From Escherichia coli (lineage in GTDB: Bacteria > Pseudomonadota > Gammaproteobacteria > Enterobacterales > Enterobacteriaceae), in NCBI RefSeq assembly GCF_044324785.1, contig NZ_CP172127.1: DNA of 64,000 bases; one strand, written 5' to 3'. A model generated the notes under the pieces. It made no database searches, had not been told where the DNA came from, and worked only from the letters and a program-made list of their open reading frames with translations. The stretch's first letter is position 1. Every line of letters starts with the position of its first letter. A program made the position numbers and the translations under genes. This document shows, in pieces, positions 3,258 to 26,492 of this stretch.

Positions 3258-4991
3258 ATGCATTCCACAGAAGTCCAGGCTAAACCTCTTTTTAGCTGGA
3301 AAGCCCTGGGTTGGGCACTGCTCTACTTTTGGTTTTTCTCTACTCTGCTACAGGCCATTATTTACATCAGTGGTTATAGTGGTACTAACGGCATTCGCGA
3401 CTCGCTGTTATTCAGTTCGCTGTGGTTGATCCCGGTATTCCTCTTTCCGAAGCGGATTAAAATTATTGCCGCAGTGATCGGCGTGGTGCTATGGGCGGCC
3501 TCTCTGGCGGCGCTGTGCTATTACGTCATCTACGGTCAGGAGTTCTCGCAGAGCGTTCTGTTTGTGATGTTCGAAACCAACACCAACGAAGCCAGCGAGT
3601 ATTTAAGCCAGTATTTCAGCCTGAAAATTGTGCTTATCGCGCTGGCCTATACGGCGGTGGCAGTTCTGCTGTGGACACGCCTGCGCCCGGTCTATATTCC
3701 AAAGCCGTGGCGTTATGTTGTCTCTTTTGCCCTGCTTTATGGCTTGATTCTGCATCCGATCGCCATGAATACGTTTATCAAGAACAAGCCGTTTGAGAAA
3801 ACGTTGGATAACCTGGCATCGCGTATGGAGCCTGCCGCACCGTGGCAATTCCTGACCGGCTATTATCAGTATCGTCAGCAACTAAACTCGCTAACAAAGC
3901 TACTGAATGAAAATAATGCCTTGCCGCCGCTGGCTAATTTCAAAGATGAATCGGGTAACGAACCGCGCACCTTAGTGCTGGTAATTGGCGAGTCGACCCA
4001 GCGTGGACGCATGAGTCTGTACGGTTATCCGCGTGAAACCACGCCGGAGCTGGATGCGCTGCATAAAACCGATCCTAATCTGACCGTGTTTAATAACGTA
4101 GTTACGTCTCGTCCGTACACCATTGAAATCCTGCAACAGGCGCTGACCTTTGCCAATGAAAAGAACCCGGACCTGTACCTGACACAGCCGTCGCTGATGA
4201 ACATGATGAAACAGGCGGGTTATAAAACCTTCTGGATCACCAACCAGCAGACAATGACCGCCCGCAATACCATGCTGACGGTATTTTCGCGCCAGACCGA
4301 CAAGCAGTACTACATGAACCAGCAACGTACGCAGAGTGCGCGTGAATACGACACCAACGTGCTGAAGCCGTTCCAGGAAGTGTTGAAGGACCCTGCACCG
4401 AAGAAACTGATCATCGTTCATCTGCTGGGTACGCATATCAAATACAAATACCGCTACCCGGAAAATCAGGGCAAGTTTGATGACAATACCGATCATGTTC
4501 CACCGGGATTAAGCGCAGAAGAGCTGGAGTCATATAACGATTATGACAACGCTAACCTGTATAACGATCATGTGGTTGCCAGCCTGATTAAAGACTTTAA
4601 AGCAGCAGACCCGAACGGTTTCCTGGTTTACTTCTCTGACCACGGTGAAGAGGTTTACGACACGCCGCCGCACAAAACTCAGGGGCGTAATGAAGACAAC
4701 CCGACGCGTCATATGTACACCATTCCGTTCCTGCTGTGGACGTCAGAAAAATGGCAAGCGACTCATCCGCGTGATTTCTCACAGGATGTTGATCGTAAAT
4801 ACAGCCTGGCGGAATTGATCCACACCTGGTCAGATTTAGCGGGCTTATCTTACGACGGTTACGACCCAACCCGTTCAGTGGTGAATCCGCAGTTCAAAGA
4901 AACTACCCGCTGGATTGGTAACCCGTACAAGAAAAACGCGCTGATCGATTACGACACGCTGCCGTATGGCGACCAGGTAGGTAATCAGTAA
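3258..4991 (+). CDS. eptC: phosphoethanolamine transferase (LPS core modification), sulfatase-family membrane protein
   Basis: ORF 3213-4991; the remembered EptC/YijP N-terminus MHSTEVQAKPLFSWKALGW begins at the internal ATG 3258 (577 aa). Multi-TM N-terminus plus sulfatase-like C-terminus. Confidence 0.9.
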   Translation: MHSTEVQAKPLFSWKALGWALLYFWFFSTLLQAIIYISGYSGTNGIRDSLLFSSLWLIPVFLFPKRIKIIAAVIGVVLWAASLAALCYYVIYGQEFSQSVLFVMFETNTNEASEYLSQYFSLKIVLIALAYTAVAVLLWTRLRPVYIPKPWRYVVSFALLYGLILHPIAMNTFIKNKPFEKTLDNLASRMEPAAPWQFLTGYYQYRQQLNSLTKLLNENNALPPLANFKDESGNEPRTLVLVIGESTQRGRMSLYGYPRETTPELDALHKTDPNLTVFNNVVTSRPYTIEILQQALTFANEKNPDLYLTQPSLMNMMKQAGYKTFWITNQQTMTARNTMLTVFSRQTDKQYYMNQQRTQSAREYDTNVLKPFQEVLKDPAPKKLIIVHLLGTHIKYKYRYPENQGKFDDNTDHVPPGLSAEELESYNDYDNANLYNDHVVASLIKDFKAADPNGFLVYFSDHGEEVYDTPPHKTQGRNEDNPTRHMYTIPFLLWTSEKWQATHPRDFSQDVDRKYSLAELIHTWSDLAGLSYDGYDPTRSVVNPQFKETTRWIGNPYKKNALIDYDTLPYGDQVGNQ

Positions 4992-5054
4992 ATGACCTTT
5001 GTATCGCGTCTGGCGCTATTTGCCGGATGCGATACTGTCACAATGTTTACATCG

Positions 5055-5084
5055 AACTCCCCTCAGGCCACACTTTTCAGGTGG
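5055..5084 (+). terminator. rho-independent terminator downstream of eptC
   Basis: Hairpin aggccacac-ttttca-ggtggcct followed by tttttt. Confidence 0.65.
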
Positions 5085-5139
5085 CCTTTTTTAATAATGC
5101 CAGTTACTGTTTTCCCGTCTACATACCTAAGGGAATAAC

Positions 5140-5991
5140 ATGTATCACGACGTCAGCTATCTGCTCTCCCGCCTGATCAACGGCCCGCTGTCCCTGCGCC
5201 AGATTTACTTTGCCAGCAGTAACGGCCCGGTGCCCGATCTTGCGTATCAGGTCGATTTTCCACGACTGGAAATTGTGCTGGAAGGTGAGTTTGTTGATAC
5301 CGGCGCTGGAGCAACGTTAGTTCCCGGCGATGTGCTGTACGTTCCCGCTGGTGGCTGGAATTTTCCACAATGGCAAGCCCCCGCCACTACCTTTAGCGTG
5401 CTGTTTGGCAAACAGCAACTCGGCTTCAGCGTCGTGCAATGGGATGGCAAACAATATCAAAATCTGGCGAAGCAACACGTCGCCCGACGCGGCCCACGCA
5501 TAGGCTCTTTTCTGCTACAAACGCTCAATGAAATGCAAATGCAGTCGCAGGAGCAGCAAACGGCAAGGCTTATCGTCGCCAGCCTGCTTAGCCACTGCCG
5601 CGATTTGCTTGGCAGCCAAATCCAGACCGCCTCACGCAGCCAGGCACTGTTCGAAGCTATTCGTGATTATATCGACGAACGCTATGCCTCCGCGCTTACC
5701 CGCGAATCTGTCGCACAGGCATTCTATATTTCGCCAAATTACCTCTCGCACCTGTTTCAAAAAACGGGGGCCATTGGTTTTAACGAATACCTGAATCACA
5801 CGCGACTGGAGCACGCTAAGACGTTGTTGAAAGGCTATGACCTGAAGGTAAAAGAAGTGGCGCACGCCTGCGGCTTTGTCGACAGCAACTACTTCTGCCG
5901 TCTGTTTCGTAAAAATACCGAACGCTCACCGTCGGAATATCGTCGGCAGTACCACAGCCAACTGACAGAAAAACCGACTACTCCAGAATGA
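5140..5991 (+). CDS. yijO: AraC-family transcriptional regulator
   Basis: 283-aa ORF with a C-terminal AraC-type HTH region (NYLSHLFQK...SPSEYRRQ); position matches K-12 yijO. 3' end overlaps the convergent frwD by 14 bp. Confidence 0.9.
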   Translation: MYHDVSYLLSRLINGPLSLRQIYFASSNGPVPDLAYQVDFPRLEIVLEGEFVDTGAGATLVPGDVLYVPAGGWNFPQWQAPATTFSVLFGKQQLGFSVVQWDGKQYQNLAKQHVARRGPRIGSFLLQTLNEMQMQSQEQQTARLIVASLLSHCRDLLGSQIQTASRSQALFEAIRDYIDERYASALTRESVAQAFYISPNYLSHLFQKTGAIGFNEYLNHTRLEHAKTLLKGYDLKVKEVAHACGFVDSNYFCRLFRKNTERSPSEYRRQYHSQLTEKPTTPE

Positions 5992-6319
5992 GATGGGTTT
6001 GCTGCGGCGCAGAAAGCACTTTGCGTACCGCGCTCATCACCCGCTGCGGCTCACGCAGGAAAGCGTAGATGCTGCATTGCACATAGCGGCAATGTTCAAA
6101 TCGCTCGGCACCGGCAAGCTCGATATCCGTAATCAACAGAGCAACATCCGCGCGACGGATATCCTCGTCCGCTAAACGATTCTCCGTTCCCAACGCGCCC
6201 TGAGTTTCAATGCTGACGCCCCACTTCTCTAACAGGCACAACTTTTCCAGCCGTTCCGCCGCCATATAAGTATGCGCCACGCCGCTTACGCAGGCGGTTA
6301 CTGCCACCAGGTATGCCAT
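5978..6319 (-). CDS. frwD: PTS fructose-like EIIB component
   Basis: 113-aa ORF MAYLVAVTACVSGVAHTYMAAERLE with the EIIB(Fru) active-site Cys motif (TAC.SGVAHTYMAAE). Confidence 0.9.
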   Translation of the reverse strand: MAYLVAVTACVSGVAHTYMAAERLEKLCLLEKWGVSIETQGALGTENRLADEDIRRADVALLITDIELAGAERFEHCRYVQCSIYAFLREPQRVMSAVRKVLSAPQQTHLILE

Positions 6320-6320
6320 T

Positions 6321-7199
6321 TTAACCTCCCACGGTAACCTGAAATCCGGCCCGTTCTGCCATTTCGCGCATCGTTGCTACATCAGCTGACGACGGCGCAG
6401 GCACCTCTTTCATCGACCATGTTTTCCCCAGCAGGCGGTATTTTGGTTCGCCGTACTGATGAAACGGTAAAAGATGGATCTGCCTGATATTCAGCGGGAT
6501 CAGCACGTCCAGCGCCTGCTGCATATTCTCCCGGCTGAGCGTAAAACCAGGGATCAGCGGTAAACGCGGGATCACGTTGACGCCCTCACTCACCAGCAAA
6601 CGCAGATTCTCCAGCACGCGTGGCAGGTTCATCTTCACCACATCCCGCGCCTGAGTCACGTCCATAATTTTTAAATCGAACAACACTTCATCGCACAATT
6701 TCGCCAGCGGTAACAGCTTGCTGGCTGGCGCGTCTCCGGCAGTTTCAATGGCACATGACACACCCCACAGCCGCAGTCGCTGTAAAAAACGGGTAGCAAA
6801 TTCCGCCTGCATTAACACTTCGCCGCCAGAAAGCGTGACGCCGCCGCCGGACGTGCGAAAGAAAATGTCATCTTTCATCACTTCCCGTTCCAGCGCGTCA
6901 AGGCTGATATCGCGACCAATCCGTTCAAACGCCCCGGAGGGGCATTCATCCGCATCACGCAAACATTTCGCACAGTGCAGACATTTCGCCTCTCTGCGTA
7001 CCGTCTGGATTTTGCCTGAGATCGACTCCGGATTAGCACACCACGGGCAAAGATGCGGACAGCCTTTAAAAAAGACCACCGTACGAATGCCCTCGCCGTC
7101 ATTCAGTGAATAACGCTGAATGTTGAAAATGCGCGCCACATCATCGCGGCGCGTTTCCACAACGTTACAGCTGATGCGCTGTCCGGCGGATGATGTCAT
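6321..7199 (-). CDS. pflC: glycyl-radical enzyme activating protein (radical SAM; pyruvate formate-lyase 2 activase)
   Basis: ORF track gives 315 aa; the remembered PflC start MTSSAGQRISCNVVETRRDD corresponds to ATG at 7199 (292 aa). Radical-SAM Cys cluster CPHLCPWC present. Overlaps the pflD 3' end. Confidence 0.9.
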   Translation of the reverse strand: MTSSAGQRISCNVVETRRDDVARIFNIQRYSLNDGEGIRTVVFFKGCPHLCPWCANPESISGKIQTVRREAKCLHCAKCLRDADECPSGAFERIGRDISLDALEREVMKDDIFFRTSGGGVTLSGGEVLMQAEFATRFLQRLRLWGVSCAIETAGDAPASKLLPLAKLCDEVLFDLKIMDVTQARDVVKMNLPRVLENLRLLVSEGVNVIPRLPLIPGFTLSRENMQQALDVLIPLNIRQIHLLPFHQYGEPKYRLLGKTWSMKEVPAPSSADVATMREMAERAGFQVTVGG

Positions 7200-9462
7200 C
7201 CTGGATCTCCTTCGACAGTTCGACAAAGAAGGCGCTGTATCCGGCAACGCGCACCACCAGCCCGGCATAATCTTGTGGGCGCTGTTGCGCTTCCCGCAAC
7301 GTGTCGGCGTTCACCACGTTAAACTGAATGTGTTGTAACTTAAGCTGGGTAAATGCCCGTAAGAAGTCGGCCAGTTTGCGTAATCCCGCTTCACCTTCCA
7401 GGGTCGCCGGAGTGAATTTCACGTTCAGCAACGTACCGTTAGACAGCAGCGTATTATCGAGCTTACTGACTGACTTCAGTACCGCCGTTGGCCCTTGTGC
7501 GTCCTGACCCAGCATAGGTGACAAGCCGCCGTCTGCCAGTTGTTCCCCGGCAAAACGACCGTCTGGCGTCGCGCCAACCACCGATCCCAACGGGACGTGA
7601 GCAGAAACGGTATACGATCCCGGCGTGAAGTAGCCGCCGCGCGGGTTTTGGTATTTTTCCACTTCTTTGCAGTAGTGGCGTAACAGTTCGGCGCTAATGT
7701 TATCCACCTCGTCGATATCGTTACCGTATTTCTCGAAGCGGTTAATTAAGCGAGCGCGGACTTTTTCGCCTTCTGGCGTTGCGAAGTTGGCTTTTAATAC
7801 CGACAGCAATTCGTCAAAACTTAAACGCTGTTGATCAAAAACCATCCCTTTCAACGCATGGAGAGAATCGCTCAGGTTGGCGATACCAATTCCCTGTACG
7901 CCGGAGAAGTTATAACGCGCGCCGCCATCGGTAATATCGCGACCTTTTTCCAGACAATCGCTGATAAAAGACGAGAGCAGCGGTACAGGTGCCCAGTCGC
8001 GATGGCCGATATCACAAATATTGCTGCCCTCTACCATCAGGGTGATGTAGTGGCTGATCTTGGCGCGGATCTGCTCCAGTAAACCTTCATAAGTCAGCGC
8101 AGCATTGCCTTCATTTTCATGCAGGCAGATTTCCATCACTTTCAGCAGATTAAACATCGCGATGTCATGCAAGCCGTAGGTTCTGCCGGGAATAGATAAT
8201 TCCACACAGCCCACTACGGAATAGTCGCGCGCATCTTCCAGCGAAACGCCACGGTTGAGGAACGCTGGTACCACCACTTCATCGTTAAAGATTTGCGGAA
8301 TGCCGGTGCCGAGGCGAATGGTTTCTGCGGTTTTCATCAGGAACGGCGTGTCGATCAAGGCGTTAGTTCGCACACCGAGGTTCGGTTGCGGTAATTGCAC
8401 GCTTTGATAAGCGTCAAGGCAGAGGAACGAAAGCACGTTCACCGCGCTACGTCCGTTTTCGGTTAACCCGCCGAGCAGTGCGGTATAGCCGGTCGGGAAA
8501 CCTGCGAAATAACGCGCACTGCTGGTGGAGCGCAACAGCACGATGTCGTTGCATTTCACCCATAAAGATTCGAGCAGTTCTTTCAGGAACGCCGGATCTT
8601 CGCCCTGGGTTAATGATGCCTGATAGAACGGCAACATATACTGGTCGAAGCGCCCCAACGATAGCGAACTGGCGTTGGATTCGTATTGCAGAATGATGTT
8701 CATGTACCAGAATAACTGGCACGCCTGCCAGAACGTCTGCGGCTTATGTTCGGCGTTATGGCGAGAGATCTCCGCAATAGTCAGCAGTTCTTCGCGACGC
8801 TGGGCATCTGTGCAGTTTGCCGCCATCGTTTCCGCCAGTTCGGCGTAACGCAAAATGTGTTTCTGCGAGGCTTCGAGCAGTAACAGCGCTGCCTGATAAA
8901 AGTGATTCTCCGGCTGTTGCTGACAATGTTGCTGCATTTGCGCTACCAGCTCACCCAGCCCGTGATTCAGCAGGCGCGGGTAATCAATAATAATGTGCCC
9001 CTGGCCTTTATCCGTCTGGTTGATGCTGAAAATCTGCGTGCTGGTCGCGGCTTTTACTTCATCCGTCATCTGCCCGTTAATGAAATCTTTCATCGAACGT
9101 TTTTCCCAGTACGGGAACAACTCTTCGCGGTAGATACGTTTATCTTCTTCGCTGATAGCAAAGCGGTCCTGCGGACGCGTCGGGAATTGATCCAGCTCTT
9201 TCAGCAGCCAGTAAGGGTCCATTTCCGGCGACATAATCCCGGCGCGTGGTTTTACGGTGCGGTTACCGGCAATCAGTTCTTCATCACGAATCGAAATTTC
9301 AACATGTTCAAGGATATACGCTGTTGCTTTCGCCCGGCGCAATATCACCGGTTCGCCTTCGGTTTGCCGATGGCTGGCGGTATAAAGCAGCGCCCGCTCC
9401 AGCGAGATTTCACGGGTATTGGCAAACAGTGCAGTTTTGAGGCGAGAGATACGATTCGTCAT
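7165..9462 (-). CDS. pflD: glycyl radical enzyme (putative formate acetyltransferase 2), substrate unknown
   Basis: 765-aa ORF MTNRISRLKTALFANTREISLERALLY; C-terminal glycyl-radical motif region VRVAGYSAFFVEL. Confidence 0.95.
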   Translation of the reverse strand: MTNRISRLKTALFANTREISLERALLYTASHRQTEGEPVILRRAKATAYILEHVEISIRDEELIAGNRTVKPRAGIMSPEMDPYWLLKELDQFPTRPQDRFAISEEDKRIYREELFPYWEKRSMKDFINGQMTDEVKAATSTQIFSINQTDKGQGHIIIDYPRLLNHGLGELVAQMQQHCQQQPENHFYQAALLLLEASQKHILRYAELAETMAANCTDAQRREELLTIAEISRHNAEHKPQTFWQACQLFWYMNIILQYESNASSLSLGRFDQYMLPFYQASLTQGEDPAFLKELLESLWVKCNDIVLLRSTSSARYFAGFPTGYTALLGGLTENGRSAVNVLSFLCLDAYQSVQLPQPNLGVRTNALIDTPFLMKTAETIRLGTGIPQIFNDEVVVPAFLNRGVSLEDARDYSVVGCVELSIPGRTYGLHDIAMFNLLKVMEICLHENEGNAALTYEGLLEQIRAKISHYITLMVEGSNICDIGHRDWAPVPLLSSFISDCLEKGRDITDGGARYNFSGVQGIGIANLSDSLHALKGMVFDQQRLSFDELLSVLKANFATPEGEKVRARLINRFEKYGNDIDEVDNISAELLRHYCKEVEKYQNPRGGYFTPGSYTVSAHVPLGSVVGATPDGRFAGEQLADGGLSPMLGQDAQGPTAVLKSVSKLDNTLLSNGTLLNVKFTPATLEGEAGLRKLADFLRAFTQLKLQHIQFNVVNADTLREAQQRPQDYAGLVVRVAGYSAFFVELSKEIQDDIIRRTAHQL

Positions 9463-20980: not shown

Positions 20981-21189
20981 AAAGCTAAAGGGCGTCAACC
21001 GAAAAATGACCAATGATAGTGAGGAAAAATCAGGGAAGATGAAAAAAACTCATCTTAATTAGAGGCGATAAGAGATTTCTCTATAGCGCAATCCATCTCG
21101 CACGTTTTGACTAATATTCTGACAACACAGCGACACCTGGGCTAATTCGAAAAACAACCTCCTGCCACCGGATGGTGATGCTAAGGCAT

Positions 21190-21222
21190 CTGATTCGGCC
21201 TGCGCTCTCACGTAGGCCGAAT
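21190..21222. repeat. REP-like palindromic unit near the left edge of the metF-metL insert
   Basis: Inverted repeat attcggcctgcg...cgtaggccgaat. Confidence 0.4.
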
Positions 21223-21279
21223 AATGGATCTGCAAAATCAACTGGTAGCAAACAGATGAATCAACTTAATACATACTTT

Positions 21280-22833
21280 TTACTTGATATCCTTCACACG
21301 CATACCGTTGATCTGTTCATCCGTGATGGTATTGCCCGCTTTGAAGTAATCAACCACGGCGTGATAAACGTAATAACCGCCCGTTGTGTTACGCGCTCTC
21401 CCTTCGGTGAAGGCGCTAAAACCATCGCCACCATCAGCAAGGAAACTCTGAGTAGCAATGTGGTAAACCGTCGCATCTTCAATGGGTTTGCCATTCAGAG
21501 TCAGCGAGATAACCCGCTGACCAACCGGCTTACTGCTGTCGTACTTCATTTCCAGGCCTTTCGATACCTGTAAAACGCCATTACTTAAACTTGCGCCGTG
21601 TTCCATCAAACTGCGTAATTGTTTACCCGTGAGATCCATCGTCACCAGTTCGTTGGGGAACGGGAAGGTACTGATGACGCCGCCCATCGTAATCGCCCCT
21701 GCGGGGATCTCATTGCGAATACCGCCAGAGTTGGTTAAAGCCAATTGAGTGTTTTTACCCGCCGCTACCAGTAAAGCGTCCGCCGCCAGGTTCCCCAGGG
21801 ATGCCGATTCACCATAGGCACGTTTTAATTCAACCGGCGATTTCGCGACCGTTTGTTGCACCACTTCATCAAGCTTTTTATTCCAGCCGTCGATCACCTG
21901 TTTCGTTTGCGGATCGGGCTTCCACTCGTCGGCGTAAATGGTTTTAAGCTCGAAGTTTTTCACCGTAAAATCATGCGGCTTCTCTTTGTAGTCGAGAACC
22001 AGTTTGCCCACATCAATCCCGCCACTGTCAGTGGAAAGGATGAGCGTATTGCCGACTTTAATCGGTTCCGGCGTACCCACATGTGCATGTCCGGTGATCA
22101 AAATATCCAGCCCTTTCACCTGACTTGCCGTCTGAATATCTTTATCCAGTGCGCGACGCACATCAGTCCCTCCCATACTGGACTGGCGGGCCGGAACACC
22201 TTCGTGGATCAGGGCGACGGTCAAATCAACCTTGCCTTTGAGTTCATCGATATAACGTTGTAGCCATTTAATTTCATCACGCGCTTCAATACCCACTCGC
22301 GTGGCAGCAGATACTGTGTCATTAAAGGCAAATACACCGTGCAAACCTATAACGCCTATTTTCACACCGTCTTTTTCGATGATGGTATAGGGCTTATCCC
22401 AGAATGATTTACTGCTGTTCTGATAAAAAACATTGCCCTGCACAATCGGGAATTTTGCCTGACTCAACTGTAATAATGTGTTGTCCCAGCCGTGGTCAAA
22501 TTCATGGTTACCCATCGTGACAGCATCGAATGGCATGGTATTCATAATATCGATAATAGCCTTGCCTTTGGTCAGGCTGCTGATATATGGCCCGGTAAAA
22601 TAGTCGCCCGCATCAAAAAACCATGTCGCCTTATTTTTTGCTTTTTCTTGCTTAACCAGCGTAGTGATATTTGCCCAGCCGCCAATATCCCGTTTACCGT
22701 CCGCAATCCACGGCACTTTATAAGGCTCTACATGTGCATGGAGGTCGTTGGTATAAATAATGGTGACATCTTTAGCGCAAGCCCAGAATGGCAGTGTTAA
22801 TGCGATACCCGCAGCAAGTATTTTAATTTTCAT
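21280..22833 (-). CDS. secreted bifunctional metallophosphatase / 5'-nucleotidase (UshA-like)
   Basis: 517-aa ORF with signal peptide ([20 protein letters not shown]), calcineurin-like metallophosphoesterase motifs (DLHAHV, GNHEFD, GHAH) and a C-terminal 5'-nucleotidase-like region. Low-GC; absent from the K-12 metF-metL interval as I remember it. Confidence 0.8.
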
Positions 22834-22965
22834 AAACAGTCCCTTTCAGTGAGATAAAGGATTGCTACATTACGTTCTGAAAGAGTTATTTATGTGAGAG
22901 TAATCACATCCACAGGGGAGCGTTGCCGGACAAAATCAACGACCATGTGAAATCGTTGGTGATAT

Positions 22966-24096
22966 ATGTCGACTCTGTTTACGATTAATGCCTGCAAGTC
23001 GTTTGGTTGCCGTAATTTAGGGCAGCCAACATCGACAGATTATAGCTGGCCCGACTATCGACTGGGTTATCCGGCACTGCACTGTCGGGCATGTGGCAGT
23101 TACCCGCCGTTGTTTGACGAGCAACAATTTCGTGACTGGTTGACAGTTCACTTATCTACTTTTGCAACAGAGAAAGGCCATTTTTGCCCGGTATGTTATG
23201 GTACAGATACGATTTGTTATGGTCACAATCCACAGGGTTCGCAACGCATTCAATGCCGTAACTGCAAAAAAGTATGGACACCCAAACAATATCAGAAAGA
23301 AATAACGACTCCCGAAATAATCGAAACGGTTGCTTTTCTCGTGCCATTTCAGGGAGTCAGCAGCGGGCAGAAACTGTATGTTTTAATCAGTTTTGATGCT
23401 CTTCGCGGTAATATTCTTCATCTTTCTACTAATTACACGCAGCATCAGGCTGGAGAAAGTCTGCATTATCGATACAGAGGGAATGCAGAACCAGAGTTAC
23501 ACGAGAGTAATATTGTACAACGCGTTGATATGCGGGAAGCACAATTTCTACGCCGCAGTCAGTTTGATGAAATTCAGTATGGCAGCGCAGCGCTCAAACG
23601 CAATGCTAAAGGTGTTATTCTGCGTCCGGTTATCACTGCACACGGGCATTTCAGAGTACTGAATATTTTATTCCCTACAGTAAAAACACATGTAATTTCA
23701 CACGAGTGTTTTTTAAGAGGTGCCATTATTACGGCATGGGCTGATCTGTTTCGCCAACAGCAAGGTGAGATTTGGTTTATTGAAGAGGAAATAGCTGACG
23801 ATACCGATAATATGCCCTGGAGTTTTCAGGGAACAACTTATCACGGCTGGTGGAAAAATCAGTGGCAACTTTGGGGTCAGGGCAAAAATCGTAAAATGGT
23901 ATGTGCATTAACGGGCGGAAAGAGTAGCAAAGCAGAAATGCTCTCTTTAGCAACCAGCAGACATTTTATCGACTGGCTACATAAACAAGCAGTATTTACT
24001 CACAGCACCCCGCTTTCCGCAGGGCGCGTTACGCAAATACTGCTTTCTCTGGCTCAGGATTACAACAACTGCGCCAGGCGGTTAATATCCGACTGA
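22966..24096 (+). CDS. hypothetical protein with N-terminal Cys-rich zinc-ribbon-like motifs
   Basis: 376-aa ORF; N-terminal CxxC pairs (CKSFGC, CRAC, CPVC, CRNC) within ~100 aa; no recognisable catalytic motif in the remainder; low-GC; 3' end overlaps the convergent metL by 37 bp. Confidence 0.55.
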   Translation: MSTLFTINACKSFGCRNLGQPTSTDYSWPDYRLGYPALHCRACGSYPPLFDEQQFRDWLTVHLSTFATEKGHFCPVCYGTDTICYGHNPQGSQRIQCRNCKKVWTPKQYQKEITTPEIIETVAFLVPFQGVSSGQKLYVLISFDALRGNILHLSTNYTQHQAGESLHYRYRGNAEPELHESNIVQRVDMREAQFLRRSQFDEIQYGSAALKRNAKGVILRPVITAHGHFRVLNILFPTVKTHVISHECFLRGAIITAWADLFRQQQGEIWFIEEEIADDTDNMPWSFQGTTYHGWWKNQWQLWGQGKNRKMVCALTGGKSSKAEMLSLATSRHFIDWLHKQAVFTHSTPLSAGRVTQILLSLAQDYNNCARRLISD

Positions 24097-26492
24097 ATCG
24101 CCCCTGCGGTGACGTCGCGCCCCGCGCCAGGCCCACGGATCACCAGAGGGTTATCGCGATACCAGCGGCTTTCGATGGCAAAGACGTTATCGCACGGCAG
24201 CAGTGATGCCAGCGGATGGTCTTCACGCACCGCTTCCACGCCCACACGCGCTTTGCCATTGGCATCGAAACGCGCCACGTAGCGCAGCACCAGCCCCATT
24301 TCGCGGGCCGCTTCCAGCCGTTGCAACATCTGCTCGTTGAGTTCATCGCCGTTTTCAAAGAAATGGTCGATGCTACCGCCTTCGCAATGGGCAGGCACCA
24401 GCGATTCCACGCGCACCTGATCTGGTTCGATGTCGTAACCCGCTTCACGCGCCAGAATCACCAGCTTGCGCATCACGTCTTTGCCGGAAAGGTCATCACG
24501 CGGGTCAGGCTCGGTTAAGCCCTGCTGCCACGCCTGATCCACCAGTTCGGTAAACGGCACGCTACCGTCGAATTGCAGGAACAGCCAGGAGAGCGTGCCG
24601 GAGAAGATCCCGCTGATCGACAAAATAGTATCGCCGCTGTCGATCAGATCGCGCACGGTATGGTTGATCGGCAATCCCGCACCGACGGTGGCGTTGTACA
24701 GCCAGTGACGCCCGGTTTTTTCGAAGGCGTCGTGGATCTGGCGATATTTATTGCTGTCGCTCGCTCCTGCCAGTTTGTTGGCACTGATGACGTGGAAACC
24801 GTGGCTGGCGAAATCAAGATACTGGTCAGCGAGCTGCTGGCTGGCGGTAACGTCCAGCACCACTAAATCATCATACGGATGGGCGCGCATCCACAGGAAC
24901 AGCGACTCTTCATCCTGCTCGACCGCTTCATCGTTGAAGAAGGCTAGCGCGCGGCTGGCATCCAGCCCGCCATAACTCAACAGGCTGCGGCGGCTGTCCA
25001 CCACGCCTGCCAGCACAAATTCAAAGCCGGTACGTGCCGAAAGCGTGCTCTGCTCACGGGCGAACAGTTCCAGCCAGCGGGAACCGATATTGCCCTTGCC
25101 GAACAATACCAGGCCGATGCGTTTTTCTGCGCGGAAGACGGACTGATGCAGCCCCTGAATCAGGCTTTCGGTTGGTCCGGTGCGCAGTACTGCCACCAGG
25201 CTGATGCCGTCATCGGACTGCCAGGTAAATTCGACCGGCTGGCCTTTCAGTTGCTGCCAGAAGCGGTGGCAATGCAGCGGGTTACGGGTGACGCCTGCAC
25301 CGACCATCGCCACCAGCGCCAGCCCCTGACGCAGGCGCAGTTCGCCAGGTAATCCCGCTTCGTCGAGGATTTTCAGCGCACTGTCAGCGACTTCTGAGGT
25401 GTAGCAAAATTGCAGCAACTGGCGATCGTTATGCACGCCAACCGCCAGTGGACGCACCTGGGCACGTTTCAGGATCTGGTCGATCTCTTTATGTGCCAGT
25501 TTGAAATCCTGACTGGCGGGCACCTGAAACTCAATCAAACAGACATCATCGTGGCTGGTGACAATACGCGCACCAGTACCAGAGGCCAGCACGCGTTCAA
25601 TGCGCGTGGAGCCTTGATCCGGCGTGTAGCTACAGCGCAGTTGCAGGTCGATTTCGCTACCGGATACCGGCTGTAAAGTACGGGCGTGAAGAACGGGAGC
25701 CGCCAGACGCGCCAGTTCGCTGGCCTCATCCAGACGCAGCAACGGCAGCAGGCAGGCATCTTTCACTTTACGCGGGTCGGCACTGTATACCCCGGCGACG
25801 TCGCTCCAGATGGTTACACGAGAAACACCCGCCAGCGCACCGATTTGTGTCGCGGAATAGTCGGAACCGTTACGCCCCAGCAGCACCGTTTCACCGGCGT
25901 TGTTACGGCTGATAAACCCGGTCACCACCAGACGTTTGCCCGGATGTTGTACCAGTAGCTGTTGCAGCAACGGGTAAGAAAGTCCTTCATCAACCTGCGG
26001 TTGCGCAGCGCGTTCAGCGCGTAAAAACTCGCGGGCATCAAGCCAGGCCGCTGGCAGCCCTTGTTGATTAAGTACCGCAGACATCAGGCGTGCCGACCAT
26101 ACTTCCCCGTGGCCCACCACTTCCGCATACACCGCATCGTTAATACCACTGTCGAGCAACGCCGCCAGGCGCTCAAGATCGCTGACAAAAGCGCTAATGA
26201 GGCTATCGGCTTCTTCGGCGGGTAACAGGCCGCTAATCAGATCGCACTGATAGCGACGCAGCGTTTGTTGAACCTGATGCGCAGAGAGACGATCGGTCTG
26301 GCTTAGTTTCAACCAGTTAATCAACTGGTTAGTGGTGCTACCGGCGGCGGAAACCACCATCATATCGTCAGGCAGAGAGTACTCCGCCATAATGCCCGCG
26401 ACACGCAAATAACACTTCACATCAGCCAGACTACTGCCACCAAATTTATGCAGTTGACGACCTTTCGCCCCTGCCTGCGCAATCACACTCAT
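24060..26492 (-). CDS. metL: bifunctional aspartokinase II / homoserine dehydrogenase II
   Basis: 810-aa ORF MSVIAQAGAKGRQLHKFGGSSLADVKCYLRVAGIMAEYS; 2 bp downstream of metB (operon). Confidence 0.97.
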   Translation of the reverse strand: MSVIAQAGAKGRQLHKFGGSSLADVKCYLRVAGIMAEYSLPDDMMVVSAAGSTTNQLINWLKLSQTDRLSAHQVQQTLRRYQCDLISGLLPAEEADSLISAFVSDLERLAALLDSGINDAVYAEVVGHGEVWSARLMSAVLNQQGLPAAWLDAREFLRAERAAQPQVDEGLSYPLLQQLLVQHPGKRLVVTGFISRNNAGETVLLGRNGSDYSATQIGALAGVSRVTIWSDVAGVYSADPRKVKDACLLPLLRLDEASELARLAAPVLHARTLQPVSGSEIDLQLRCSYTPDQGSTRIERVLASGTGARIVTSHDDVCLIEFQVPASQDFKLAHKEIDQILKRAQVRPLAVGVHNDRQLLQFCYTSEVADSALKILDEAGLPGELRLRQGLALVAMVGAGVTRNPLHCHRFWQQLKGQPVEFTWQSDDGISLVAVLRTGPTESLIQGLHQSVFRAEKRIGLVLFGKGNIGSRWLELFAREQSTLSARTGFEFVLAGVVDSRRSLLSYGGLDASRALAFFNDEAVEQDEESLFLWMRAHPYDDLVVLDVTASQQLADQYLDFASHGFHVISANKLAGASDSNKYRQIHDAFEKTGRHWLYNATVGAGLPINHTVRDLIDSGDTILSISGIFSGTLSWLFLQFDGSVPFTELVDQAWQQGLTEPDPRDDLSGKDVMRKLVILAREAGYDIEPDQVRVESLVPAHCEGGSIDHFFENGDELNEQMLQRLEAAREMGLVLRYVARFDANGKARVGVEAVREDHPLASLLPCDNVFAIESRWYRDNPLVIRGPGAGRDVTAGAIQSDINRLAQLL

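Follow-up and report, generated by a model that had tools for sequence, protein, structure and literature searches.

The closest described relative of the gene analyzed here is found in the insertion sequence IS1, whose InsA protein binds the IS1 ends, represses its own promoter, and needs its helix-turn-helix (HTH) for DNA binding. Domesticated transposases acting as DNA-binding regulators include FHY3/FAR1, CENP-B, and DAYSLEEPER in eukaryotes and the TnpB-derived TldR repressors in bacteria. To our knowledge, there are well-documented eukaryotic cases of such exaptation and essentially no described ones among bacterial DDE transposases, and host recruitment of cut-and-paste transposases is thought to be rare in prokaryotes. 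A second known system is the set of E. coli nucleoside scavenging genes controlled by CRP/CytR (tsx, cdd, udp, deo, and nupC/nupG). The literature searched on the locus, on Salmonella STM4102-4104, and on bacterial transposase-derived regulators contained no functional study, nothing tying the 376-aa protein described below to regulation, and no account of a bacterial DDE (IS1-type) transposase with a comparable recruitment. The nucleotidase/Tsx module treated here was noted in pathogenic E. coli (GR31, metL..metF) by a 2026 genome paper, which left its control unexplained.

We analyzed a gene for a 376-aa protein in a 64-kb window, which is the whole stretch of E. coli DNA under study. The explanation that we favor, and to which we give an even chance, is that it encodes a domesticated, immobile IS1-type transposase that would regulate the nucleotidase/Tsx genes together with its own promoter. 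The features of the locus, numbered by position in the window, are as follows.

21048..24058, no strand assigned: 3.0-kb segment with the nucleotidase gene and the 376-aa gene, absent from K-12 in a blastn comparison of the window with the metL-metF region of K-12
21280..22833, minus strand: divergent partner gene for a 517-aa metallophosphatase/5′-nucleotidase (UshA-like) with an N-terminal signal-peptide-like sequence; its best NCBIfam matches are nucleotidase families
22966..24096, plus strand: gene for the 376-aa protein, predicted to be transposase-derived, with an ATG start and comprising an extra zinc ribbon, an InsA-type zinc ribbon, an RNase H-like core, and a C-terminal helical part

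Coding status and distribution

The open reading frame (ORF) at 22966..24096 is an uninterrupted run of 376 codons in a single frame, and the same ORF is annotated as a CDS by RefSeq in E. coli 042. Orthologues with 58–95% identity occur in many enterobacterial genera, 20 orthologues drawn from many genera share 116 invariant residues, and a dN/dS of 0.10–0.16 over a long divergence, with synonymous sites saturated, indicates purifying selection. The original prediction had allowed for a spurious ORF lacking conservation; given this identity across genera, the dN/dS, and the synteny described below, the ORF is instead a genuine conserved gene and not a chance one. A version of it is present in roughly one-fifth to one-third of complete E. 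coli genomes, ExPEC lineages included, and in many Enterobacteriaceae and Vibrionaceae. The protein lacks a signal sequence. If true, the assignments made below provide a fold and an origin for a protein that databases name only as “cytoplasmic” or “hypothetical protein”, with some relatives entered as “IS1 family transposase”.

The gene evolves faster than its neighbors, several-fold so relative to its nucleotidase partner, and Salmonella, Kluyvera, and some Escherichia have copies that are truncated or split. In Salmonella arizonae (L046) and an Escherichia sp. (L042), a truncated gene lies beside an intact nucleotidase gene, and many Salmonella entries are fragmentary; the 376-aa gene is therefore dispensable for keeping the nucleotidase. 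A decaying relic without present function could show these traits, as well as the loss of the HTH described below, but we regard this as extremely improbable in view of the low dN/dS over saturated synonymous divergence, the invariant residues, a compact and very confident AF2 model, and the persistence of the family from the Vibrionaceae to the Enterobacteriaceae.

Genomic neighborhood

The original prediction suggested looking for conserved neighbors in other genomes, and one is evident: the nucleotidase gene lies divergently at ~132 bp in nearly all enterobacterial loci fetched, with locus L022 truncated immediately upstream of the gene. In its fuller forms, the module carries two or three nucleotidase genes plus the Tsx nucleoside channel. 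Homologues at 20–40% identity (Vibrionaceae and other Gammaproteobacteria) adjoin genes for a porin, a class-B acid phosphatase, and a class-II cNMP phosphodiesterase; others adjoin nucleotidase genes, NupC, Tsx, and TatD genes, or a nucleoside phosphorylase gene, and further homologues adjoin Tsx-family, sulfatase, and sulfatase-maturase genes. Members of the sulfatase-linked subfamily come last in an operon whose products include a cytoplasmic maturase. The linkage of the family to nucleotidase/Tsx-type genes is obligate and, since the 376-aa gene stands head-to-head with periplasmic nucleotidase genes, its product would most likely be a regulator of nucleotide scavenging. PADLOC gave no known defense match for the 376-aa protein or the neighboring nucleotidase, and a reading as an anti-phage defense component was rejected on this basis.

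Zinc ribbons

Three domains were delimited in the 376-aa protein.

22987..23109, plus strand: first predicted zinc ribbon, residues ~8–48 (N8-x-C10-K-x3-C15-x-N17 ... C40-x2-C43-G-x2-PP), family-specific, with the four Cys each present in at least 60 of 64 members
23179..23283, plus strand: second predicted zinc ribbon, residues ~72–106 (C74-x2-C77 ... Y85-G86 ... R94 ... C97-x2-C100), of the IS1 InsA / IS1-IS1595 transposase type
23314..23910, plus strand: predicted RNase H-like (DDE transposase/integrase-type) core, residues ~117–315, with V122, V222, and E247 at the canonical acidic positions

The cysteines within residues 1–100 are C10, C15, C40, C43, C74, C77, C84, C97, and C100. The “four CxxC-type pairs” first reported here were nearly exact, as three are strict CxxC pairs (40/43, 74/77, and 97/100) and the fourth is Cx4C (10/15). 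All eight paired cysteines (C10/C15/C40/C43/C74/C77/C97/C100) are invariant in 20 orthologues, and among 64 family members, C97/C100 are kept in 64/64, C10/C15/C40/C43 in 60–61/64, C74 in 55/64, and C77 in 53/64; C84 is not conserved. Where one or two zinc ribbons had been anticipated, two are predicted, each a set of four cysteines whose ligand pairs are conserved across homologues, with the second homologous to that of InsA.

The first ribbon matched no Pfam family. The second scored 22 bits against NCBIfam NF050000 (cutoff 28) and an E of 0.02 against PF03811, both sub-threshold when taken alone; two relatives (P0123 and P0140) exceed the cutoff of NF050000, an IS1/IS1595 Zn-domain model, and Pfam InsA matches were obtained for 9/64 family members at E ≤ 1e-3 and for 26/64 at E ≤ 0.1. 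Using hhalign, the family profile aligned to IS1 InsAB′ with 96.8% probability (E 2e-10), with the 376-aa protein gapped over the HTH. This HTH, which follows the second ribbon, is kept in longer relatives (aligning to InsA 40–87) and missing in the 376-aa subfamily, leaving a gap of ~40 residues relative to P0123. With the HTH missing, any DNA binding would have to come from the zinc ribbons by themselves.

RNase H-like core and catalytic positions

An AF2 model of the 376-aa protein, built on an alignment that included distant homologues, was compact with a pLDDT of 95.3 and a pTM of 0.94; an AlphaFold model from 20 close orthologues alone reached a pLDDT of 39.8. The former matches the RNase H-like cores of DDE transposases/integrases, with a five-stranded mixed sheet and flanking helices in the order b1-b2-b3-a1-b4-a2-b5-a3. 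Compared with ISCth4 (IS256/Mutator family), Tn7 TnsB, and HIV-1 integrase, the RNase H-like fold is shared at an identity of 8–14%, with the triad incomplete. Foldseek with this model against the PDB yielded nothing significant, and matches to C2H2 zinc fingers in a PDB-sequence profile search were set aside as compositional only. Pfam and NCBIfam gave no significant family for residues 107–376, and the earlier statement that no catalytic domain is recognizable thus holds at the sequence level; the C-terminal ~270 aa, left unassigned at that stage, are nonetheless assignable through the high-confidence model. When the C-terminal domain alone was compared with IS1 InsB by hhalign, the match was not significant (E 0.2), so that in this subfamily the homology of the core holds for DDE cores generally and not for IS1 specifically.

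The catalytic positions were mapped from alignments and from the order of secondary structures in the model, not from model coordinates. By this mapping, V122, V222, and E247 align where the five most distant, IS1-like members of the family have D, E/D, and E/D, respectively, and the first-Asp strand reads “TDRQEY” in these five members versus “MDEQWGY” in IS1. An alternative IS1-based hhalign alignment places the second Asp position at H167 of the 376-aa protein, which is also non-acidic. As judged from alignments and model, the D-D-E triad is incomplete, with two of the three acidic residues lost and E247 kept, and DNA cutting by the protein has probably been lost. The non-canonical residues that are conserved in the core are N156, Y168, R197, D201, H228, H246, E247, and R251. 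E247 and several of the conserved His, Arg, and Asn residues would fit an enzyme too.

Like IS1 InsAB′/InsA, the family has a homologous second zinc ribbon and, in its longer relatives, a homologous HTH (NCBIfam IS1 models and hhalign); like IS1, its parts are ordered as zinc ribbon, (HTH), and RNase H-like core, and its most distant members keep a “TD.QEY” first-Asp strand. Unlike IS1, for which the layout of IS1A was compared (two overlapping frames joined by a programmed −1 frameshift), the 376-aa gene is one ORF, and its product has an extra N-terminal zinc ribbon, an HTH deleted in its subfamily, and a core about twice the size of InsB that IS1 sequence models do not detect beyond position ~83. 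The gene also differs from IS1 in having two catalytic acids replaced, no terminal inverted repeats, a single copy, and a syntenic position. On the combined evidence of sequence and model, the 376-aa gene derives from an IS1-type transposase. What the original prediction had named as counting against it, namely clear homology with a transposase or IS accessory protein already known, is therefore present as to ancestry, through the DDE-like core and the InsA-type second ribbon; the gene is nonetheless neither a spurious ORF nor a live insertion sequence.

Immobility at the metF-metL locus

The slot between metF and metL is occupied by the 376-aa gene in Escherichia, Citrobacter, Klebsiella, Kosakonia, Phytobacter, Salmonella, Kluyvera, and Superficieibacter, while K-12 has 198 unrelated bp between metF and metL in place of the 3.0-kb segment. 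The median copy number is 1 per E. coli genome, and bursts of near-identical copies are not seen. No inverted repeats flank the ORF, and the ends of the 3.0-kb segment show neither inverted or direct repeats nor target duplications. The “plasmid” matches inspected, including all those at least 56% identical, proved to be chromosomes or pieces of the chromosomal metF..metL region entered as plasmids, and a plasmid- or phage-borne reading was rejected on account of these misfiled pieces (phage-collection matches were not inspected individually). No terminal repeats were seen on short contigs with the most distant and possibly active relatives, which gives no support for these as live insertion sequences.

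Within the Enterobacteriaceae, the module of nucleotidase plus 376-aa gene is found in at least three unrelated chromosomal contexts, always with the 376-aa gene at one module edge, and between two E. coli alleles, dS is 1.07 in the 376-aa gene versus 0.19 in the adjacent nucleotidase gene, which reveals recombination at the locus. Both observations, along with the “IS1 family transposase” annotation of some relatives, would suit a still active transposase or recombinase that moves the nucleotidase/Tsx module between chromosomal sites. We consider this very unlikely, as valines occupy catalytic positions (V122 and V222), the segment ends lack terminal inverted repeats and target duplications, the gene is single copy in a metF-metL position common to many genera, no genuine plasmid carried it among the matches inspected, and dN/dS stays at ~0.1 over long divergence with no near-identical copy bursts.

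Divergent control region

The two divergent genes share a short intergenic region, which contains the following features.

22834..22965, no strand assigned: divergent control region of 132 bp between the nucleotidase gene and the 376-aa gene, conserved in length and sequence across genera
22893..22908, no strand assigned: putative perfect CRP-type core, TGTGA-N6-TCACA, at the center of the control region and ~65–67 bp from each start codon
22937..22958, no strand assigned: inverted repeat CAACGA-N10-TCGTTG, a candidate operator or leader hairpin just 5′ of the start codon, with an almost invariant right arm, AAATCGTTGGT
22842..22883, no strand assigned: conserved inverted repeat CCTTTCAG ... 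CTGAAAG that encloses the leader and promoter of the nucleotidase gene, with the nucleotidase Shine-Dalgarno in one arm

The control region has a mean column identity of 85% over five genera and retains near-invariant blocks in 37 distinct sequences, although synonymous sites of the flanking genes are saturated. TGTGA-N6-TCACA, which we take to be a CRP site from the known consensus, has its sole match in the window here (versus 0.03 expected); Escherichia and Citrobacter retain the whole core, and Klebsiella and Enterobacter retain a single half-site. Like the CRP/CytR regulon, the module joins a Tsx-type channel and nucleotide/nucleoside hydrolysis and uptake with a CRP-type promoter site; unlike that regulon, its candidate regulator is unrelated to the LacI-family CytR, and its UshA-like nucleotidase paralogues are absent from K-12.

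As RNA, the CAACGA/TCGTTG repeat folds no better than shuffled sequence (z −0.14), while the 78-nt nucleotidase leader (z −2.55) may form a hairpin hiding the Shine-Dalgarno and AUG. No covariation was seen in the inverted repeats of the control region; the RNA and DNA roles of the CCTTTCAG/CTGAAAG repeat are therefore not separable, and an RNA-structure explanation for both conserved inverted repeats was set aside, covariation giving it no support. A search for extra copies of control-region motifs upstream of other module genes returned only a recurrent 11-mer, which is the TNDL-coding stretch of nucleotidase genes; an 11-nt block in the leader of the 376-aa gene is complementary to this stretch in nucleotidase mRNAs. 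A generic promoter/terminator scan of the region gave nothing convincing, and Rfam gave no known RNA there.

The leader hairpin and the complementary 11-nt block bear on a different role, in which the 376-aa protein would act as a non-DNA accessory factor for secreted hydrolases, either as a cytoplasmic zinc-dependent chaperone/maturation factor or as an RNA-binding controller of the nucleotidase mRNA leader. The sulfatase-linked homologue that ends an operon with a cytoplasmic maturase would agree with such a role as well. We nevertheless find this role quite unlikely, given the lack of covariation in the hairpin, the descent of the protein from a DNA-binding module, and linked enzyme classes too varied for a specific maturase (nucleotidase, acid phosphatase, phosphodiesterase, sulfatase, phosphorylase, and transporter).

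Proposed role in nucleotide scavenging

As a domesticated transposase turned regulator, the 376-aa protein would bind the conserved repeats of the shared 132-bp control region through its zinc ribbons, with the former DNA-binding surface of the core perhaps adding to this binding, and would act with cAMP-CRP to control the nucleotidase/Tsx promoter as well as its own, a parallel to the action of InsA on the IS1 promoter. The conserved core residues listed above may together make up a site for a ligand or metal through which this activity is tuned. Counting against the regulatory reading are the missing HTH, the dispensability of the gene for keeping the nucleotidase, its several-fold faster evolution than that of its partner, the conserved residues that would fit an enzyme, and the unconvincing promoter scan. 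Some of the core residues (H228, H246, E247, D201, R197, and N156) could alternatively mark a core rebuilt round a His/Glu/Asp/Arg site, making the protein an enzyme and not a regulator, that is, a cytoplasmic nuclease or phosphotransfer-type enzyme acting on nucleic acids or nucleotides and feeding or complementing nucleoside salvage. This we judge unlikely: we know of no nuclease family with this residue set, the partners are periplasmic or outer-membrane proteins whereas the 376-aa protein has no signal sequence, and the combination of two transposase-type zinc ribbons with a divergent gene pair and a conserved control region common to both genes looks more like a regulator paired with its target.

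The domesticated-transposase reading resembles FHY3/FAR1, CENP-B, DAYSLEEPER, and TldR in that catalysis and mobility are lost, nucleic-acid-binding parts are kept, and the gene is fixed near host genes. It differs in that those cases rest on experiments, whereas for the 376-aa protein we infer DNA binding, any ligand, and, from context, regulation and its direction. If true, it would add a clear example from bacteria of host recruitment of a cut-and-paste transposase and would supply a candidate regulator, with a compact CRP-site control region, for an accessory nucleotide-scavenging module (UshA-like nucleotidases and Tsx), making the regulation of extracellular nucleotide use directly testable. 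A broader reading, which we hold to be possible yet somewhat doubtful, is that the protein is the founding member of a family, spread over the Gammaproteobacteria, in which domesticated DDE (IS1-type) transposases serve as dedicated, possibly ligand-sensing transcription factors. In such a family, the dead active-site pocket would be the sensor and the targets would be scavenging modules of an outer-membrane channel plus periplasmic hydrolases (nucleotidase/Tsx, acid phosphatase/phosphodiesterase/porin, and sulfatase/Tsx-like).

Overlap with metL

Two further features lie at the 3′ end of the 376-aa gene.

24060..24096, plus strand: last 12 codons and stop of the 376-aa gene, from metL 3′-end antisense, a 37-bp convergent overlap
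23987..24045, minus strand: strong hairpin, probable metBL terminator, on the strand of metL, 14 nt past its stop codon and within codons ~341–360 of the 376-aa ORF

With the metL ORF at 24060..26492 on the minus strand, the 37-bp convergent overlap originally described is borne out by the ORF coordinates. Homology to K-12 resumes by blastn at 24059, at the metL stop, from where the 376-aa ORF runs to the first stop in metL antisense, and the tail of the protein after Y366-N367 is not conserved in the family. The overlap results from the locus junction, and from its sequence the antisense arrangement looks incidental. The hairpin folds as RNA at −39.2 kcal/mol (z −5.8) and is followed by GUUUAU, with most metL-adjacent alleles having a stronger one than do alleles at other sites; it is probably the terminator of metBL.

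Conservation of the gene

The ORF at 22966–24096 (+) is ATG-initiated, spans 376 codons and lies in an enterobacterial region ordered katG, metF, a 3-kb segment, metL, metB, and metJ; an identical ORF is annotated in the E. coli 042 RefSeq genome as a "hypothetical protein". Residues 1–100 contain four cysteine pairs (C10-x4-C15, C40-x2-C43, C74-x2-C77, and C97-x2-C100), three of them strict CxxC and one Cx4C, as well as an extra cysteine, C84, which is not conserved. The original prediction had described these pairs, the absence of a recognizable catalytic domain, and a 37-bp overlap with metL, and is correct as written: Pfam and NCBIfam returned sub-threshold zinc-ribbon matches alone (residues 73–121) and were blank over the remaining 270 residues, and the convergent metL ORF ends at 24060.

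The 376-codon ORF is a genuine gene, with 253 relatives recovered among 5.8 billion proteins searched. Orthologues 58–97% identical were found in Escherichia, Pseudocitrobacter, Citrobacter, Klebsiella, Enterobacter, Pluralibacter, Kluyvera, and others, most named merely "cytoplasmic protein". An alignment of 20 orthologues showed 116 of the 376 residues to be invariant along the full length, and pairwise dN/dS against six orthologues was 0.10–0.16, indicating purifying selection that is weaker than on the neighboring nucleotidase gene (0.02–0.05) or metL (0.03–0.06). This rules out the spurious ORF previously raised as an alternative; the same values speak against a reading of the gene as a decaying relic. 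The allele is present in 1,180 of 5,426 complete E. coli genomes (≥80% query coverage), and up to ~570 further genomes, those in the 80–90% identity band, seem to have an allele ~83% identical to it, with a median of one and a maximum of two copies per genome.

Relationship to IS1-type transposases

On the best-supported reading, the protein is a domesticated IS1-type transposase in which the zinc-ribbon module for nucleic-acid binding and the core fold survive and catalysis and mobility have been lost. Among 1.84 billion representative proteins, a profile search gave 149 matches, ~56 of them full-length (350–613 aa). Using a 64-sequence alignment, AlphaFold produced a compact, very confident model (pLDDT 95.3, pTM 0.94), compared to a pLDDT of 39.8 with close orthologues alone, and the order of secondary structure across residues 118–263 is canonical RNase H-like. 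Foldseek found no significant match in the PDB and pointed to RNase H-like proteins too. The second zinc ribbon resembles the zinc domain of IS1 InsA and IS1/IS1595 transposases; the protein itself is sub-threshold, two relatives exceed the curated cutoff of the IS1/IS1595 model, and an InsA-type match at E ≤ 0.1 was seen in 26 of 64 family members. The family profile matched InsAB′ of K-12 IS1 with 96.8% probability (E = 2e-10), spanning the zinc ribbon and the next helix-turn-helix (HTH). Neighbors in the AlphaFold database, from Vibrio, Photobacterium, Proteus, and Serratia, are labeled "IS1 family transposase", "InsA N-terminal zinc ribbon domain-containing protein", or "cytoplasmic protein".

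The zinc-ribbon/HTH matches and the RNase H-like model together indicate IS1-like transposase ancestry, plus an additional family-specific N-terminal zinc ribbon, such that the one or two ribbons first suggested are in fact two. The protein is thus not categorically new, being of a known transposase type and fold; Pfam and NCBIfam have no model for the core of the family, its annotation is hypothetical, and our literature search found no paper on it.

Probable loss of catalysis and mobility

On their first core strand, the five most distant members (570–613 aa) carry "TD.QEY", aligned by hhalign with "MDEQWGY" of IS1, and they also have acidic residues just after the fourth strand and after the fifth. 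The equivalent residues here are V122, V222, and E247, at positions that are acidic in 14, 6, and 63 of 64 members, respectively. In an alternative IS1-guided alignment, the second Asp falls on the residue before the conserved Y168, here the non-acidic H167. Two of the three putative catalytic carboxylates are gone under either mapping, which follows alignment and secondary-structure order, not model coordinates. A set of non-canonical core residues is strongly conserved (N156, Y168, R197, D201, H228, H246, E247, R251, W296, and W300), which suggests a retained or new pocket, possibly one that holds a ligand. These residues would also fit a less likely rival reading, an enzyme with a rebuilt active site.

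A still-active mobilization protein is a further, improbable reading. The InsA-type HTH of longer relatives is deleted in the 376-aa subfamily, and no inverted or direct repeats were found flanking the ORF or the 3-kb segment. In tblastn searches of plasmid and phage collections, the plasmid matches inspected, among them every one ≥56% identical, were whole chromosomes or chromosomal metF–metL fragments misfiled as plasmids. The gene sits in the metF–metL slot in Escherichia, Citrobacter, Klebsiella, Kosakonia, Phytobacter, Superficieibacter, Salmonella, Kluyvera, and Pseudocitrobacter, an arrangement for which long residence and a loss in K-12-like E. coli offer the best explanation. The lost carboxylates and HTH, the lack of repeats, the synteny, and the misfiled plasmid matches among those inspected indicate that this is neither a live transposase nor a live IS. 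Homology to a known transposase, named in the original prediction as a refutation, therefore holds for ancestry (the InsAB′ match) and fails for a live element; ancestry and immobility together are highly probable. Among bacteria, it is unusual for a DDE transposase to have become a host gene lodged next to one specific class of scavenging genes across Gammaproteobacteria.

Genomic neighborhood

In nearly all fetched enterobacterial loci, as the suggested search for conserved neighbors revealed, the gene is divergent from an UshA-like metallophosphatase/5′-nucleotidase gene with a signal-peptide-like N-terminus (21280–22833 (−) here) across a gap of ~132 bp; in the one exception, L022, the sequence breaks off immediately before the 376-aa protein gene on its upstream side. 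The pairing occurs at metF–metL and at least two unrelated chromosomal sites (Klebsiella, Enterobacter), where the first nucleotidase gene is followed by one or two more and the Tsx nucleoside channel, and further non-metL loci exist. In the E. coli 85.0412 allele, tsx and two additional nucleotidase genes, of which one is a pseudogene, lie downstream of the 376-aa protein gene. A 2026 paper describes the segment as genomic region GR31 (metL..metF) of ExPEC strains, remarking on three UshA-like ORFs and Tsx and not on the present ORF.

Relatives at 20–40% identity are found divergent from a porin/class-B acid phosphatase/class-II phosphodiesterase operon, immediately following a nucleotidase gene, flanked by NupC and Tsx/TatD genes (Aliagarivorans), or after a purine/uridine nucleoside phosphorylase gene. 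For a ~420-aa subfamily, the gene closes an operon whose other products are a Tsx-family outer-membrane protein, a sulfatase, and an anaerobic sulfatase maturase, which extends the linkage from nucleotide to sulfate-ester scavenging:

L049 (Franconibacter), 4353–9236: Tsx-family/sulfatase/maturase operon
L057, 2519–7263: Tsx-family/sulfatase/maturase operon

What these neighborhoods share is a channel in the outer membrane together with periplasmic ester hydrolases and the uptake or catabolism of nucleosides.

The whole module is present as two diverged copies in E. coli SCPM-O-B-8794 (L015/L023), Escherichia sp. MOD1-EC7003 (L017/L042), and Citrobacter sp. wls619 (L033/L043), one at metF–metL and the other elsewhere with extra nucleotidase genes and tsx. 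The 376-aa protein gene is truncated or fragmented in Salmonella, Kluyvera, and some Escherichia (L046, L042, L045, and AlphaFold-database matches); its nucleotidase partner is intact in L042 and L046 and split in L045 (Kluyvera). In other Salmonella (L061), the copy is intact at 374 aa, and extra genes, one of them mscS-like, precede metL.

Control region and proposed function

The 132-bp intergenic region (22834–22965) shows 85% mean column identity across five genera, and near-invariant blocks persist in 37 distinct intergenic sequences, with dS of the flanking genes saturated; by these comparisons, the region is far more conserved than neutral sites. Its main features are:

22893–22908: putative CRP-type core TGTGAGAGTAATCACA, a perfect TGTGA-N6-TCACA, at the center of the region
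22842–22849 and 22877–22883: conserved inverted repeat with arms CCTTTCAG and CTGAAAG, located in the leader and promoter of the nucleotidase gene, one arm containing the Shine–Dalgarno sequence
Just before the start codon of the 376-aa protein gene: conserved inverted repeat CAACGA-N10-TCGTTG

The CRP-type core, flanked by both repeats, is the sole one in the 64-kb window (0.03 expected) and lies about 65–67 bp from each start codon; by known consensus and spacing rules, this would fit a single CRP dimer shared by a divergent pair of class II promoters. If transcribed whole, the CCTTTCAG/CTGAAAG repeat would sequester the Shine–Dalgarno sequence and AUG. RNA folding scored the extended leader of the nucleotidase gene at z −2.55 and detected no signal at the CAACGA/TCGTTG repeat, and Rfam recognized no known RNA in the region. 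No covariation was seen in either repeat, leaving a protein-binding site and an RNA hairpin indistinguishable. An RNA-binding or non-DNA accessory factor is an unlikely rival reading of the protein.

We propose that the 376-aa protein may regulate the divergent nucleotidase (and Tsx) genes plus its own gene, jointly with CRP. InsA binds the ends of IS1 and represses its own promoter, and the proposed self-promoter control would be alike. Regulator function is a tentative assignment, at slightly under even likelihood, with the missing HTH as a main weakness.

The near-invariant leader block AAATCGTTGGT (22950–22960) is the reverse complement of a TNDL-coding stretch, ACCAACGATCT, found ~110–130 nt into every nucleotidase paralogue (loci L003, L006, L007, L021, and L023); the two mRNAs could pair over ~10 nt, although coincidence is possible.

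Segment junctions and the metL overlap

K-12 (L056) has 198 unrelated bp in place of 21048–24058 and so lacks the 3.0-kb segment of nucleotidase and 376-aa protein genes. Homology resumes at 24059, exactly at the metL stop, and the last conserved motif of the ORF, Y366-N367, lies at 24061–24066; the non-conserved tail is antisense to metL and runs on to the first stop. Citrobacter and Klebsiella orthologues extend 26 bp into metL with a different tail, and other loci have a gap of ~25–90 bp. Given the tight junction and non-conserved tail, the overlap is a by-product rather than a conserved feature. The right junction is the metL stop codon exactly. The Y366-N367 codons overlap metL at its TTACAACAA end, as a junction formed by microhomology could leave them.

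23987–24045 (−; 24045–23987 on the metL strand): hairpin, −39 kcal/mol, z −5.8, 14 nt past the metL stop

This hairpin, followed by GUUUAU, falls within codons ~341–360 of the convergent ORF and probably terminates metBL transcription; most alleles next to metL have a stronger version of it than alleles at other sites. The convergent metBL and 376-aa protein transcripts would overlap.

Between 21280–24096 and the E. coli 85.0412 allele (L002), dS is 0.19 for the nucleotidase gene and 1.07 for the 376-aa protein gene (77% amino acid identity); the two alleles are mosaic, which implies that a recombination breakpoint lies within the control region or close to it. A REP/BIME-like palindromic element (~21170–21225; …ATTCGGCCTGCG…CGTAGGCCGAAT…) lies just downstream of the nucleotidase stop. 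In several genera, the codon matching the E. coli start ATG reads ATA, and translation probably begins at the TTG that follows, shifting the N-terminus by one residue:

L006, L007, L020, L021, L024, L040, L041, and L044, around position 8001: ATA in place of the ATG
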